Positions 63 to 4,631 of a stretch of DNA of 4,631 bases are shown one piece after another (the first letter of the stretch is position 1; every line of letters begins with the position of its first letter). Origin of the DNA: a virus; the UHGV virus genome UHGV-0038887, one strand, 5' to 3'. A program made the translations under genes and the position numbers. The notes under the pieces are model-generated. The model was not told the origin of the DNA. It did no database searches and saw nothing but the letters and a program-made list of their open reading frames with translations.

Positions 63-90
63 GGTGCGCATAATGTAAAGTTATGTCAAA
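63..90 (+). other. dif-like Xer recombination site, left prophage junction (attL-like)
   Basis: GGTGCGCATAA-TGTAAAG-TTATGTCAAAA. The 11-nt XerC arm is identical to E. coli dif (GGTGCGCATAA, from memory). The spacer is 7 nt (TGTAAAG) instead of TGTATA, and the XerD-like arm matches TTATGTTAAAT at 9 of 11 when shifted by 1 nt (ungapped 20 of 28 overall). Confidence 0.75.
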
Positions 91-107
91 AGGTGCCAGA
101 TTTGCGA

Positions 108-227
108 TTATAAACGGATACCGCCACGCATTGAGCGGGCTTTAAAGTTCTTCTTATGCGACTTCGCATACTTGCGGAACGAACGGCGGGAAGAACGCTT
201 AGACATACGTCTACGGGAACGAGCCAT
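108..227 (-). CDS. VP8: Small basic DNA-binding protein (VP8/ORF8-like, analogous to phiX174 J), 39 aa
   Basis: Hand translation of the reverse complement of 108-227 gives MARSRRRMSKRSSRRSFRKYAKSHKKNFKARSMRGGIRL then TAA; 17 of 39 residues are Arg or Lys. GGAGG lies 5 nt upstream of the ATG and overlaps the VP2 stop codon. Not in the supplied ORF track, presumably below its length cutoff. Confidence 0.75.
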   Translation of the reverse strand: MARSRRRMSKRSSRRSFRKYAKSHKKNFKARSMRGGIRL

Positions 228-229
228 AA

Positions 230-1000
230 TTACCTCCGATAATTGTTAATCAACTGCTGCTGGAACTGTGAAGGGGGGAAGCGTCCCCCCTTGTTTACTT
301 TCTTCGCCGAATTAGCCTCATGGTCACGCTTATAAGAACTAAGCCAAGTATTAAGCCCGCCGATAAGACCGCCAGAAGAAGCATCCATATTGACACGTGC
401 ACTTTCAGCTCCAACAGGTGTATTCAAATAATCAGCCAGAACCTTGTCCTGAACAGTCTGATATTGAGTTCTAATCCGCTGTGCAGAGCTAAGGCCTGTC
501 TGTGCTTCGATATTAGCTCTCCGACTTGCCTCGGTCAAAATCTGCTGATTGGTCAGATTAGACTGTGTTTTCATGTTCTCAACGTTCTGGAGAGCGGCAG
601 CAGCCTGTGCATCCTTAAGACGTACATCAGCCGCACTATTCGCAATCTGGTTACGCTGCAAAGCAATCTGTGACTCAATACCTTCCTTAGCAACCTGTTG
701 CTGTTGACGCTTCGTTAAGGCATCAAATGCAGCAACGGCAGAACTGACGGCACCAGAAAAATCAGCAGGCTGGGCAGCCTGAATACCTGACGAACTGACG
801 GAACCAAGACCACCGGAACCTGTAACGGCCAGAATCGGGTTAAGGCCAGCTTTCCGTAAATCCTGAACACGATACTGGATACCATTTTTGGCCAAATCCA
901 TCGTAATCTTATTGGCACGGTCAGCCGAAGATTTCGCGGAATGGGCACCAAGAAGAGCAGAACCAATAGCGCCAGCAGCGCCAGCAATTGCACTCCACAT
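230..1000 (-). CDS. VP2: Minor capsid / DNA pilot protein VP2
   Basis: 256-aa ORF directly downstream of the capsid gene. Gly/Ala-rich N-terminus (AIAGAAGAIGSALLGA), a Gln-rich central segment, and an RKAGLNP motif typical of gokushovirus VP2 as I recall it. AGGTGA Shine-Dalgarno 4-5 nt before the ATG. Confidence 0.85.
   Translation of the reverse strand: MWSAIAGAAGAIGSALLGAHSAKSSADRANKITMDLAKNGIQYRVQDLRKAGLNPILAVTGSGGLGSVSSSGIQAAQPADFSGAVSSAVAAFDALTKRQQQQVAKEGIESQIALQRNQIANSAADVRLKDAQAAAALQNVENMKTQSNLTNQQILTEASRRANIEAQTGLSSAQRIRTQYQTVQDKVLADYLNTPVGAESARVNMDASSGGLIGGLNTWLSSYKRDHEANSAKKVNKGGRFPPSQFQQQLINNYRR
271..292. repeat. GC-rich inverted repeat (AAGGGGGGA / TCCCCCCTT, 4-nt loop AGCG) inside the 3' end of VP2
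   Basis: Direct reading: 271-279 is the reverse complement of 284-292, giving a 9-bp stem with a G6/C6 core. It encodes the GGRFPPS segment of VP2, about 45 nt upstream of the VP8 start. Function unknown. Confidence 0.5.
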
Positions 1001-1013
1001 AATTTCACCTCAT

Positions 1014-1036
1014 AAAAAAAGGCCTCCGAAGAGGCC
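1014..1036 (-). terminator. Intrinsic-terminator-like hairpin between VP1 and VP2
   Basis: On the minus-strand transcript: GGCCUC-UUCG-GAGGCC (6-bp GC-rich stem, UUCG tetraloop; plus 1021-1036) followed immediately by U7 (plus A7 at 1014-1020). It sits 15 nt after the VP1 stop and just upstream of the VP2 ribosome-binding site. Confidence 0.6.
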
Positions 1037-1050
1037 AAATGACGAAACGA

Positions 1051-2763
1051 TTAAAAATGGTCAATAAGACCTGGTACAGAGTATACAGGCATGGGCCGCA
1101 CACACTTCAAGTCAAAGAACGCATCCATAATGAACTGGGGTTCGTCCTGTACAGCAAGAACGCGTTTCATCGGTGGATTCTCTTCAATGAATTCCTGATT
1201 CAGTGCAGGAAGAGAGTCGAACCGCTGGGCTAAATGCCACACATCGAGAGATTGCGGGTCTGTGGAACGTAATTTACCAGTAATCTGAGATGGTCGGTAG
1301 CGGTACTCTGCATAACGTTCCTGATAACCAAAAACTTCCTCATCCTTCTCGTTACCTTGTGCATAAATCTCCTTGTTAAAAACAGCCTGTTCGCCCAGAT
1401 GGGCCAGTGCAGGCCAGTAAAAATCAAAACGAGTCAGACGGGAAAACATACGCGGAATACCTTGCTGATAGGTCAAGTCGGCACGAACGCTGACAAGACC
1501 AATCACAAAACAATGCTCAACGAAGGAATGAGAGAAACCACGGTTTACACCTCCTGCAACGCCATAAGCGGCTAAGTTACCCTGTGGGGTGGAGTCGGTA
1601 GTAGCGGAGTTCTGGAGAACGGGGTTCACATTAATATCAAACGTACCAGAACCAAGATACTCGGGACGCTGTACACGGGCATCCGGCGAAATAACGCCAA
1701 AATGGGAGCGGATAATCTCAATATAACGAGTACCACCGCGAGCATCACGCTCAAGCAGCCGCTGAAGCTGGAACGCCTGACGAAGCGAATTGATTGTCAG
1801 ATTATCAACAACCTCACCGCCAGACTGCTTCAACTTAACGGGCGGATTTCTTTCATCAAATCCGGCAACCGCATAAGACAACGCACCTTCATCACCAATA
1901 GTAACAGGTGGAAACTTCCAATTACCTACACGATCCGTAGATAAATACATTTGAGAAGCCCCAATGTCATCATATGCAGAATTGGGCTGCGTACCCATAA
2001 CCAATTTATAGGGGTCGGAAAGACCAACAGAACCATTACCAGAAAAACCATAAGTCTTAAAGCCTAAACCACCTGGATAGCTGGGATATTCCAGACTGTA
2101 AGACGGTGGAACGCCAAGAGCAATCTCAACGCCTTCACCTTTCTGAGGCCATGGAAGGGCACTGGTGAAATAATCATGACGTTTTGCACGCTTACGCAAC
2201 GGAAAATTTGCAAGACCTGTTTCCGTCTCATCACCAAGCGGAAGCGGGGCGGAATTAATCAGGTTTTCATCACGATACCATTCGTTATAAATCAGGTTGT
2301 ACGCGCGAAACGGCAGAGCGCTCACACTGATACCTTCAATACCTGTGGGAACGCCAAAATAATCGGCAAGGGAACCTACAGGGAAACCGCCAGAAGGGGC
2401 TTTAATCTGCGGGATAAGATAATCCGTCGAATCACCAGGATTCTTCTGCTCACCGTTGAACTGTTGCCAGTGGTCCCAGACAAGACGATAGGGCACGGAA
2501 AAATACTGGATATCCAGGCGAAGGTTATCCATAAAAGGCACCACTGGCGTGGAGAGACGCGCCAGAATGGACGTCTTCAGATGGAACGTATCACCTGGTA
2601 AAGCCTCATCCAGAAACACGGGAATTAAATAACCTGCATCAAAAGAAGTTTTATAACCGGAACTGCGGTTAAAAACCGAACGCTGAATGTTGGCACTCGG
2701 GATAACTGAAAAATTATGCTGACTTTTTGAATTACTGGGCACTTTGCGACCAAATTTACTCAT
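1051..2763 (-). CDS. VP1: Major capsid protein VP1 (gokushovirus F-like)
   Basis: 570-aa ORF whose length and N-terminal region (…MDNLRLDIQYFSVPYRLVWDHWQQF…) match my recollection of gokushovirus VP1. Strong Shine-Dalgarno (GAGGGGGG) 3 nt before the ATG. Confidence 0.95.
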   Translation of the reverse strand: MSKFGRKVPSNSKSQHNFSVIPSANIQRSVFNRSSGYKTSFDAGYLIPVFLDEALPGDTFHLKTSILARLSTPVVPFMDNLRLDIQYFSVPYRLVWDHWQQFNGEQKNPGDSTDYLIPQIKAPSGGFPVGSLADYFGVPTGIEGISVSALPFRAYNLIYNEWYRDENLINSAPLPLGDETETGLANFPLRKRAKRHDYFTSALPWPQKGEGVEIALGVPPSYSLEYPSYPGGLGFKTYGFSGNGSVGLSDPYKLVMGTQPNSAYDDIGASQMYLSTDRVGNWKFPPVTIGDEGALSYAVAGFDERNPPVKLKQSGGEVVDNLTINSLRQAFQLQRLLERDARGGTRYIEIIRSHFGVISPDARVQRPEYLGSGTFDINVNPVLQNSATTDSTPQGNLAAYGVAGGVNRGFSHSFVEHCFVIGLVSVRADLTYQQGIPRMFSRLTRFDFYWPALAHLGEQAVFNKEIYAQGNEKDEEVFGYQERYAEYRYRPSQITGKLRSTDPQSLDVWHLAQRFDSLPALNQEFIEENPPMKRVLAVQDEPQFIMDAFFDLKCVRPMPVYSVPGLIDHF

Positions 2764-2813
2764 AAACCCCCCTCGGGAATCTGACTAAATTATAAACAAA
2801 CCACTGTATAAAC

Positions 2814-2900
2814 TGACACCTTTTTACAGGCTTCGTGGGAGCCGCCTGTAAGTTTCGGTGTCACCTGGCACAGTTACATCAAGTAGGACACTGTGCCAGG
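2814..2900. repeat. Tandem stem-loop module in the VP3-VP1 intergenic region
   Basis: Perfect 11-bp inverted repeat CCTGGCACAGT (2864-2874) / ACTGTGCCAGG (2890-2900) around a 15-nt loop. Immediately adjacent is an interrupted hairpin: TGACACC (2814-2820) pairs with GGTGTCA (2857-2863), and TTACAGG (2824-2830) pairs with CCTGTAA (2845-2851), around a 14-nt loop. No U-run follows on the coding strand. Confidence 0.6.
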
Positions 2901-2908
2901 CTGCAGGG

Positions 2909-3421
2909 TCAGGAGCCGTCTGCAGGTTTCGCGGGTTCAACACCCGCATCTGCTGAATTATTCACATCAGCACCGGAACGCTCCCGCGGGGACGCCGGAG
3001 CAGGACTCGACTCGCGAACGCTGACGCGTTCGGTCGCCGACTCCTCTCCGCCGCTCAATAATCCAAGCTCACGCGCTTTACTCCAGTTCTGCGGGTCACT
3101 CATCCACTCAACGTACTGCTTAACGTTGTTACCAAACATCGAGCGAATCGTGGACGGCAGGCTGTTAAAGTCGTCGTTAACGTCGTCAATTAAAGCCATT
3201 GCGTCCACATAATCAGTAATCGCAGAGGCATCGTAAAATTCACCACGCTGAGCACTGGTAAACACTGTCGTATCTCCCGTTCTTATCGCACGCTCAACAA
3301 TCTTGTTAACATCGCACTCATCGCGGAAATGCTGCTGGGTCATCGTAGGCTCTGTAAACTCGATGCCGGGCGACGGCGGCGGGTTATAACGGGTATGAAA
3401 CTTAGGCTTCGATGTACGCAT
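2909..3421 (-). CDS. VP3: Putative internal scaffolding protein (VP3-like); start uncertain
   Basis: ORF between VP5 and VP1 with an acidic, Ser/Pro-rich low-complexity C-terminus. The track ORF runs to 3511 (200 aa), but that first ATG has no Shine-Dalgarno and would overlap VP5 by 110 nt. The ATG at 3421 (MRTSKPKF…, 170 aa) has GGAG about 10 nt upstream and overlaps the VP5 stop by 20 nt. Assignment is by position and composition, not a recognised motif. Confidence 0.6.
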   Translation of the reverse strand: MRTSKPKFHTRYNPPPSPGIEFTEPTMTQQHFRDECDVNKIVERAIRTGDTTVFTSAQRGEFYDASAITDYVDAMALIDDVNDDFNSLPSTIRSMFGNNVKQYVEWMSDPQNWSKARELGLLSGGEESATERVSVRESSPAPASPRERSGADVNNSADAGVEPAKPADGS

Positions 3422-3671
3422 CTTCCATTTTCTCCAGGAACGCCGGACTGGCATCACAAACATAAACGCGGTCAATATCGACCGGAACCAGCTGCTGGTC
3501 CACAAAGTCATAAGCAGTCACACGGTGCAACGAAAAATCAACACGCTGCATACGATTACAGAACGCGTGCAGATTGCCTTTCGCAATACCATCATGCTGG
3601 GCCATAAACATAAAAACATCAGCATTAATCAGCTTGTCATGAATTACATAAACTGCATCAGAGTGAGCCAT
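3402..3671 (-). CDS. VP5: VP5-like small protein (proposed role in DNA synthesis/packaging, by analogy to phiX174 C)
   Basis: 89-aa ORF immediately downstream of VP4, with its start overlapping the VP4 stop by 14 nt and AGGAAG upstream of the ATG. Size and position match gokushovirus VP5. Confidence 0.7.
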   Translation of the reverse strand: MAHSDAVYVIHDKLINADVFMFMAQHDGIAKGNLHAFCNRMQRVDFSLHRVTAYDFVDQQLVPVDIDRVYVCDASPAFLEKMEDAYIEA

Positions 3672-4521
3672 CTTCTAACTTCCTCATCATTCGCTGGAAT
3701 TTAACCAGATTAAACTTATCCATATCCTGTAAGCGCCACGGGTCCAGTATATTTGCATTCAACTGGCGACACTCTTTATTCTGCTGCAACTTTTCCAAAT
3801 CACAGCCTGATAATAACTTGTCATAATAGCGGGGCGGTTTTATCTGACGACCACCACGACCAATACACGCATCTGAATTAACTATGTCATCGTAATATTC
3901 CATAAAAAAATCATAACCAATACCGGGTCTGTTACTCATGGCAGAAAACTCGGGGATACGGTCTCCGTAATGCTCCGAAGCACGGGAACCGGTGACTTTT
4001 TTAACACAGTATCGCGCCACGTAAGCAGCCGACTCAAAACTAAAAGCAGCAACAACAGACCAGCCAAAAGTCCAACATCTCTCAAGAAGCGAAGACCTAT
4101 ATAAATTAAATCTTCCAGCCTTGTGTAATGTCTTATCCGGAAAATCATAACCAAAAATAATCGCATGATAATGCGGTCGTTCTAATTTAGAACCATATTC
4201 ACCACAACCAAAAAATCGAATTGAAATATCATCAACAGCCAAAGACTTACGCAAACGCTTCATAAAATCAGTGAAATGTTTACGTACAAGAGAACCATTT
4301 TCAGGCAAATTCTCAGGGGAATAAGTCAGAGTGATAAAACAATTGTAATCATGCATGTGGGCTTCATGAACGCAACGGGTAGCCCAGTCACGAGAATGAG
4401 CAAGACGGCAACCGATGCACTGACCGCAGGGCAACTGGATGAATTTAGCGCCACGTGACGGCGTGAAAAAAATCTTTCCCGATGGCATCTGGTACGCGTT
4501 TAAAGGACGAGTACAAGCCAT
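3658..4521 (-). CDS. VP4: Replication initiation protein VP4 (HUH rolling-circle endonuclease)
   Basis: Rolling-circle Rep motifs: motif 1 CFITLTY, motif 2 HYHAIIFG (HUH), motif 3 YVARYCVKK with YxxxY catalytic tyrosines; also an N-terminal CGQCIGC cluster. Preferred start is the ATG at 4521 (MACTRPLNAY…, 287 aa), which has GGAGGTG 6 nt upstream. The track ORF start at 4563 (301 aa) has no Shine-Dalgarno and lies inside the dif XerC arm. Confidence 0.92.
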   Translation of the reverse strand: MACTRPLNAYQMPSGKIFFTPSRGAKFIQLPCGQCIGCRLAHSRDWATRCVHEAHMHDYNCFITLTYSPENLPENGSLVRKHFTDFMKRLRKSLAVDDISIRFFGCGEYGSKLERPHYHAIIFGYDFPDKTLHKAGRFNLYRSSLLERCWTFGWSVVAAFSFESAAYVARYCVKKVTGSRASEHYGDRIPEFSAMSNRPGIGYDFFMEYYDDIVNSDACIGRGGRQIKPPRYYDKLLSGCDLEKLQQNKECRQLNANILDPWRLQDMDKFNLVKFQRMMRKLEDGSL

Positions 4522-4554
4522 GACACACCTCCAGAAATCAAGGAGGCACCTCTT

Positions 4555-4582
4555 AGTGCGCATAATGTATATTATGTTAAAT
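4555..4582 (+). other. dif site (XerC/XerD), right prophage junction (attR-like)
   Basis: AGTGCGCATAA-TGTATA-TTATGTTAAAT matches E. coli dif (GGTGCGCATAATGTATATTATGTTAAAT, from memory) at 27 of 28 positions. The only mismatch is position 1 of the XerC arm. Same orientation as the left site. Confidence 0.85.
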
Positions 4583-4631
4583 CATGTCTGAGTGATGCGA
4601 AGTGCTTTTCTGGTAGTCGTTATTCGTTCAG

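Follow-up and report, generated by a model that had tools for sequence, protein, structure and literature searches.

Hybrid attachment sites of an enterogokushovirus prophage at the Escherichia coli dif locus and a probable VGJphi-like mode of integration

Enterogokushovirus prophages located at dif and dependent on XerC/XerD were described by Kirchberger & Ochman (2020, eLife, PMC7062461), with EC6098 (GenBank MT185428) as the type phage. The same study revived circles from prophages (PMC7062461). For lysogeny, EC6098 depends on xerC, xerD, and both arms of attP, and its lysogens undergo continuous loss and reacquisition of the prophage in culture (PMC7062461). Complementation of xerD failed, so the role of XerD is not cleanly established even for EC6098 (PMC7062461). 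The two motifs that flank a prophage are labeled there as 'bacterial' and 'phage', of which the bacterial one 'remains unchanged', and the mechanism of integration is said to remain to be elucidated (PMC7062461). A search of the text of this paper found no mention of hybrid sites, attP, strand exchange, or Holliday junctions, and a full-text literature search found no later paper on the integration mechanism of enterogokushoviruses.

Other phages illustrate several ways of using Xer recombination. The attP of VGJphi is one 29-bp site used as dsDNA. Heterology beside its XerD arm leads to exchange by XerC only, which is resolved by replication and is reversible (PMC4246890, PMC5357621). CTXphi uses a folded ssDNA attP with two inverted sites about 90 nt apart; the exchange is made by XerC, and integration is irreversible as the fold is lost in the prophage (PMC4246890). 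TLCphi has a dif-identical central region and almost no XerD arm, and its recombination is XerD-first and reversible (PMC4246890, PMC5357621). TLCphi is also described as needing its own activation factor, XafT (PMC4246890; PMC6744903, PMC9226527).

The locus considered here is the 4,631-nt stretch of DNA given above (the window), which is 100% identical over its full length to contig DABDDE010000026.1 of E. coli GCA_012754475.1 and to one metagenome contig. It contains a prophage of Enterogokushovirus (Microviridae, Gokushovirinae) that very probably entered the E. coli dif site by means of host XerC and XerD in a VGJphi-like exchange. The prophage shows 87.7% nucleotide identity to EC6098 over 84% of the window, 86.8% to Microvirus mar4, and 93% to the prophage of E. 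coli strain C5. In one representation, based on open reading frames, identity to relatives, and reconstruction of the circle, the prophage proper occupies positions 74-4565 on the minus strand. Its length of 4492 nt is within the 4316-4692 nt range of described members (PMC7062461). The host flank downstream of hipA, on the left chromosomal side of dif (1-62), and the flank on the right chromosomal side (4583-4631) both align to unoccupied E. coli dif loci; for the left flank, hipA is annotated in the complete-genome lysogens. In seven complete E. coli lysogen genomes the same kind of element is located between hipA, directly upstream, and a fimbrial cluster. Unoccupied E. coli genomes have a single dif at the hipA-side locus, and the empty site aligns across the join.

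All sizeable genes of the prophage are on the minus strand in the order vp4-vp5-vp3-vp1-vp2-vp8, and the same set and order are observed in EC6098 and mar4. The vp4 gene (3658-4521, 287 aa, Pfam REP_ORF2-G2P) encodes the rolling-circle replication initiator Rep, which is 90% identical to the representative of a 341-member cluster, and starts 33 nt from the XerC arm. It is followed by vp5 (3402-3671, 89 aa), a small nonstructural protein identified by its reading frame and the annotation of relatives, vp3 (2909-3421, 170 aa), the internal scaffolding protein (Pfam Chlamy_scaf, PF09675), and vp1 (1051-2763, 570 aa), the major capsid protein (Pfam Phage_F, PF02305). The DNA pilot protein vp2 (230-1000, 256 aa) was again assigned from its reading frame and the annotation of relatives. 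The last gene, vp8 (108-227, 39 aa), encodes a basic, putatively DNA-binding protein; it is called in the identical contig L093, and the homologous coding sequence is vp8 in EC6098. The matches to the three Pfam domains (Phage_F, Chlamy_scaf, and REP_ORF2-G2P) were taken from a contig identical to the window. No integrase or recombinase domain was present among the precomputed Pfam matches of the six phage genes. The window's phage and EC6098 share the genus-level group, the six genes in order, the dif locus, and the size range.

Each end of the prophage carries a dif-like site. The left site, attL (63-91, plus strand), was defined by its match to the dif arms and by identical sites in the lysogens L003, L092, L094, L114, and L115. 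It reads as a 29-bp hybrid of the host XerC arm GGTGCGCATAA (63-73), the central region TGTAAAG (74-80), whose first four bases are common to dif, and the phage XerD arm TTATGTCAAAA (81-91). The right site, attR (4555-4582, plus strand), was defined by its match to dif and reads as a 28-bp hybrid of the phage XerC arm AGTGCGCATAA (4555-4565), the host central region TGTATA (4566-4571), and the host XerD arm TTATGTTAAAT (4572-4582). With a 7-nt spacer allowed, the left site departs from the E. coli dif arms at two positions, the right site has one mismatch to canonical dif, and in each case none of 200 shuffles (dinucleotide shuffles for the left site) gave a match. Each is the only match of its kind within the window. 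This composition had been described in the original prediction, namely a host-identical XerC arm with a divergent 7-nt spacer and XerD arm on the left and a one-mismatch XerC arm with a canonical spacer and XerD arm on the right, and the sequence confirms it on both sides. The left site had been assigned to positions 63-90; the location is right, but the site is 29 nt long, so that the end was placed one base short.

The only exact repeat common to both ends is a 14-nt block, GTGCGCATAATGTA, at 64-77 on the plus strand, which is shared with 4556-4569. The two copies are direct and spaced by 4492 nt, in agreement with the circle size proposed earlier. The 4492-nt circle has the same sequence whichever cut point is chosen from 64 to 78, and 74-4565 is therefore one valid notation. 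The attP reconstructed in this way is AGTGCGCATAA-TGTAAAG-TTATGTCAAAA, a 29-bp site (11+7+11) located within the 78 nt that separate the vp8 stop from the vp4 start. Its central region has TGTA in common with dif on the XerC side, followed by AAG versus TA. Its XerD arm matches dif at 9 of 11 positions; hence the XerD side, which had been called degenerate, hardly deserves this description. The attP of EC6098, AGTGCGCATAA-TGTATA(T)-TTAGTTTAAC(G), differs by a dif-identical central region and a poorer XerD arm, compared with TGTAAAG and the 9/11 arm in the window.

An independent view of this junction is provided by mar4 (MZ089750), a free virus from marmot faeces with a circular genome of 4589 nt. 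The region that separates its vp4 from its vp8 contains GGTGCGCATAA-TGTAAAG-TTATGTCAAAA, which corresponds to the predicted circle junction at 28 of 29 bases, and the flanks of the mar4 site are homologous to window positions 4522-4554 on one side and 92-107 on the other. Thus, the 7-nt spacer, the XerD arm, and the vp4/vp8 junction of the predicted attP are all found in a free circular relative, as the proposed comparison with free gokushoviruses called for, but the agreement does not extend to position 1 of the XerC arm, where mar4 has G instead of A. No free circle of exactly this phage was found: an exact search of IMG/VR for attP gave zero matches, and the only match in a single scan of metagenomes was another lysogen. 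A 4.7-kb contig with an identical capsid gene (L096) was considered as a free circle and rejected, as it is a lysogen fragment with host flanks.

The mar4 sequence bears directly on the question of which parent contributed each XerC arm. In the published drawing, the right site would be an untouched bacterial dif and the left site a whole phage dif, G63 being of phage and A4555 of host origin. The left site is indeed identical to the mar4 attP at 29 of 29 positions, including G at position 1, and the 28-mer AGTGCGCATAATGTATATTATGTTAAAT that forms attR is the native dif in about 400 of 5,426 E. coli genomes, e.g., ATCC 8739. We nevertheless consider this assignment extremely unlikely. It demands a crossover outside the recombinase cut sites. 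Most free relatives have A: among seven natural genomes known as free phages or viral contigs, position 1 is A in five (L097, L108, L013, L105, and L107) and G in two (mar4 and L014). EC6098, rebuilt from a prophage, also has A. The assignment demands A in every lysogen host as well: all Escherichia lysogens examined have A as the first base of the vp4-side arm and G as that of the host-flank arm. The set comprises the seven complete genomes, the window's clone, L094/L095/L115, and L113, among them a 99.2% variant from a different host background and one more Escherichia contig. Three types of phage spacer and XerD arm are represented, all with this pattern.

The host side of this argument depends on the polymorphism of dif itself. 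Position 1 of E. coli dif was surveyed in 5,426 complete genomes with seed-restricted 30-mers; the base was G in 4,800 genomes, A in 410 (the seven lysogens among them), and T in 22. Thus, A is a native minority allele of about 7% of E. coli, exemplified by ATCC 8739 and C41(DE3), and is not confined to phages. In the sampled rows the A alleles mostly occur with a mismatch at flank base -2, as in ATCC 8739 (tatatt). Among unoccupied sites with the exact 48-nt flank haplotype of the window, a haplotype-matched query puts the number of genomes with G at about 1,100 (13 of 60 rows sampled at even spacing), and A is present in 4. If the right site were an untouched host dif, all lysogen hosts would have to belong to a haplotype of roughly 0.4%, with A on the window's flank. 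The hybrid reading of both sites, in which G63 comes from the host and A4555 from the phage, holds and is supported by mar4, the lysogens, and the host flank haplotype. As attR coincides with the native dif of about 400 E. coli genomes, it should function as dif.

The BW25113 dif coordinates printed in PMC7062461 (NZ_CP009273.1, 3046436-3046463) lie within ubiH according to RefSeq, and the record of a BW25113 substrain has its dif region near 1,584,993-1,585,040. The 'dif-motif' feature in the GenBank entry of EC6098 begins one base inside the 28-bp frame and so omits position 1.

Tandem prophages provide another test case for the origin of the arms. L111 (Intestinirhabdus alba GCA_009711095.1) and L112 (JGI 3300056856, Ga0562375_0008), both from a non-Escherichia enterobacterial host, each carry a tandem pair of different gokushovirus prophages at dif; a single prophage is present in Enterobacter cloacae (L109). 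In L112 the three successive sites combine the host XerC arm with the XerD arm of phage A, the arm of phage A with the XerD arm of phage B, and the arm of phage B with the host XerD arm. The XerC arm of phage B, AGTGCGTATAA, differs from the host arm at positions 1 and 7 and recurs as the XerC arm of L108, a free circular genome. L111 shares the host flank of L112 and has AGTACGCATAA as its attR arm. The XerC arm thus changes with the adjacent phage and the host flank stays constant, which again speaks against an untouched bacterial site. In these arrays, each XerC arm goes with the phage on its vp4 side, in support of the hybrid model.

The hybrid composition limits the position of the crossover. 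On the plus strand, position 63 is of host origin (G) and position 78 is of phage origin (A, with T in dif); hence, the strand changed parent in between. The XerC cut site (73|74) is inside the interval 64-77, and the XerD cut site, at the far end of the central region, is beyond it. An exchange at the boundary between the XerC arm and the spacer, as originally proposed, is thus consistent with the data and would be expected mechanistically, but the sequence narrows it only to 14 nt. All type-1 lysogens (the window, L094/L095, L003, and, for attL only, L092) have the phage central region at attL, and the host central region is present at attR in the three type-1 lineages for which this site can be read. 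In this small sample, the pattern corresponds to the outcome carried by the XerC-exchanged strand.

The following scheme is suggested for integration. The dsDNA replicative form carries a single attP and would be used as dsDNA. With no integrase of the phage, host XerC and XerD would bind attP and dif. XerC would cut the top strand of both sites at the border of its arm and the central region and swap the strands; pairing and ligation of the swapped strands would be possible because the first four central bases (TGTA) are common. On the XerD side, an additional base and a mismatch (AAG versus TA) would block exchange by XerD, and the Holliday junction would be converted to product through replication or another host process. 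The expected products are attL (63-91) and attR (4555-4582), the latter remaining a working dif. Excision would be the reverse reaction, in which attL and attR recombine to give the 4492-nt circle with the junction ...CACCTCTT-AGTGCGCATAATGTAAAGTTATGTCAAAA-GGTGCCAG... (as a k-mer, CTCTTAGTGCGCATAATGTAAAGTTATGTCAAAAGG) and the restored empty site TATACTGGTGCGCATAATGTATATTATGTT. We infer catalysis by XerC only and resolution by replication from VGJphi, for which both have been shown, and from cer. The requirement for XerC, XerD, and both attP arms, together with ongoing excision, is carried over by analogy from the relative EC6098.

An alternative scenario is complete two-step recombination, in which XerC and XerD both exchange strands, either activated by FtsK as at dif or with XerD acting first as in TLCphi, and the same flanking sites arise by chance segregation of the heteroduplex. 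XerD should bind the 9/11 arm, and EC6098 lysogeny needs both xerC and xerD (PMC7062461), but VGJphi and CTXphi likewise need XerD to be present and not its catalysis. Relatives with the dif-identical TGTATA (EC6098, L004, and L005-L009) could in principle permit both exchanges. The 7-nt central region of the window is unlike dif on the XerD side, and the same arrangement stops XerD exchange in VGJphi (PMC4246890, PMC5357621). Independent type-1 lysogens (the window, L094, L003, and L092 for attL only) all show the XerC-strand outcome, although these three or four events are too few to reject a 50:50 segregation. On balance, the two-step scenario seems rather improbable for this phage, and exchange by XerC only is preferred.

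The resemblance to CTXphi that had been suggested earlier, with stable integration explained by a poor reverse reaction, does not withstand comparison. Both are ssDNA phages that have no integrase and use Xer recombination at dif, XerC-catalyzed exchange there would be common to both, and the central region of the window's attP is heterologous on the XerD side. The irreversibility of CTXphi, however, results from the forked hairpin of two inverted ssDNA sites, a structure that the prophage no longer has (PMC4246890). A second site and a forked-hairpin fold are both missing from the window's phage: the reconstructed circle contains a single dif-like site, counting either strand, with no inverted partner, and the attP junction, when folded as ssDNA, does not exceed shuffles in stability (z = -0.73). 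Moreover, a XerC arm and TGTA are retained in attL as well as in attR, so that excision should be no less feasible than integration. In EC6098 lysogens the prophage is continually lost and regained (PMC7062461); as the attP class of EC6098 differs from that of the window, reversibility of the window's phage is an extrapolation. A stable insertion that is essentially irreversible owing to a poor XerD-side site is therefore very unlikely.

By its sequence features, the window's attP matches the VGJphi class and not the CTXphi class. As in VGJphi, there is a single 29-bp attP (11+7+11), and homology to dif in the central region is found beside the XerC arm only. Integration as dsDNA, a working dif left on one side, and flanking sites that both stay Xer substrates would be further common features. 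The systems differ in that VGJphi is an inovirus and uses XerCD and dif1 of V. cholerae. TLCphi is similar in the use of Xer at dif and in an asymmetric attP with the weaker XerD side; it differs from the window, which has TGTAAAG in place of TGTATA and a 9/11 XerD arm, and is nearer to the attPs of L105 and EC6098. The cer site of ColE1 is also an E. coli XerCD site with a central region other than 6 bp (8 bp), at which the exchange is made by XerC only and the junction is resolved by other host functions (PMC5357621). Unlike the phage site, cer has about 180 bp of accessory sequence with ArgR and PepA, and it resolves plasmid dimers and is no integration site.

Relatives of the phage divide by the structure of attP. 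Among the 29-bp sites in which TGT is followed by four heterologous bases, the circular contig L097 and the internal site of the Intestinirhabdus tandem array have TGTTGCA, the circular L108 has TGTTGCC, and the Enterobacter cloacae lysogen has TGTTGCG. The dif-identical central region TGTATA with a weak XerD arm is observed in EC6098, L105, and L112. As sites of both the TGTTGC/TGTAAAG type and the TGTATA type are present, the group holds two attP designs: a 29-bp one with a 7-nt central region and heterology on the XerD side (the window, mar4, L097, L108, L109, and L111) and a 28-bp one with a dif-identical central region and a degenerate XerD arm (EC6098, L105, L112, and others). Tentatively, these designs might reflect two ways of exploiting E. 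coli XerCD, a VGJphi-like one with exchange by XerC only at the 29-bp sites and a TLCphi-like one, perhaps with XerD exchange, at the 28-bp sites, but we regard this as doubtful. If the two-design reading is true, integration would also swap the host XerC arm of dif for the arm of the phage. If both pathways operate, enterogokushoviruses would be an E. coli model for mobile elements that escape FtsK control of Xer.

The advance over published work is modest. The phage group, its location at dif, and its dependence on XerC/XerD and the attP arms were already published in 2020, and the hybrid-site reading is a correct refinement and not a discovery. The established picture of lysogeny by hijacking XerCD at dif is unchanged. 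The explicit dissection of the hybrid sites and the precise attP were new in the original prediction, and the present analysis places this attP in the VGJphi class and contributes the evidence of the tandem arrays. The published drawing of an unchanged bacterial dif plus a phage dif is thereby corrected. A practical consequence is a base-exact rule for excising enterogokushovirus prophages from genomes and rebuilding the infectious circle: the vp4-side XerC arm belongs to the phage, the host-flank XerC arm belongs to the host, and any cut in the shared 14 nt gives the same circle. Membership in the VGJphi class predicts catalysis by XerC only, a need for XerD solely as a binding partner, independence from FtsK, and reversibility.

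Several further features were observed around the attachment sites. The contig L092 (Ga0233370_1000023) contains a 99.5% identical phage with an identical attL, in which about 2.8 kb (214-2980) is inserted precisely where the hipA flank meets position 1 of the XerC arm, at the site corresponding to window junction 62|63. The insert includes a gene with a SIR2-like domain (Pfam SIR2_2, E = 4e-26), a transposase-like reading frame with no Pfam match, and, at approximately L092 307-333, a dif-like site in inverted orientation, GGTTCGCATAA-TGACG(T)-TTATGCTAAAG. The prophage may thus be adjoined by a second dif-associated element, possibly with a defence gene.

On the vp4 side of the site, the longest vp4 reading frame (301 aa) begins at an ATG within the XerC arm (4561-4563, minus strand); Rep as called starts at 4521 and is preceded by a GGAGGTG ribosome-binding site (window 4522-4563, minus strand). 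An overlap of dif motifs with the vp4 N-terminus has been reported for some members (PMC7062461). In the reconstructed circle the attP core is flanked by a 10-nt inverted repeat, GGCACCTCTT ... AAAAGGTGCC (window 4545-4554 and 88-97; 9 of 10 pairs). The equivalent repeat of mar4 is GGCGACTTTT ... AAAAATCGCC, and in this one independent comparison two-sided changes keep the pairing at two positions. A T-to-C change in the phage XerD arm, which gives TTGACA on the coding strand, was considered as part of a promoter; this was dropped because promoter-like sites are not above chance and none is located at attP in the window or mar4.

Relatives of the TGTATA type have an inverted copy of the XerC arm that abuts the real arm on the vp4 side (L014, reverse complement, about 626-661; L002, 4478-4508; L004, L007-L009, L105, and L106). 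In L014 it forms a perfect 10-bp palindrome, TATGCGCACC-TT-GGTGCGCATA; the window retains only GCAC...GTGC. This palindrome could act as a hairpin in ssDNA or in the vp4 leader.

Within the prophage, a terminator-like hairpin, GGCCTCTTCGGAGGCC, followed by seven T's is located between the vp1 stop and the vp2 start (1021-1036, minus strand), and it may attenuate transcription past the capsid gene. An inverted repeat at 84-102 and 2810-2828 was discarded, as it is no better than other chance pairs in the repeat list. No Rfam match was found anywhere in the window, including the vp1-vp3 intergenic stem-loop at 2857-2900. The latter has a perfect 11-bp stem (2864-2874 and 2889-2899) with a 14-nt loop, and as coding-strand ssDNA its stability is above that of shuffles (z = -2.79). 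This 44-nt stretch is a candidate for a conserved replication origin or priming signal. About 95% identity is kept there in very distant gokushoviruses that otherwise do not align, with 95.5-95.6% in Eel River basin pequenovirus and bajarodmic viruses and 91.5% in Kummerowia striata gokushovirus.
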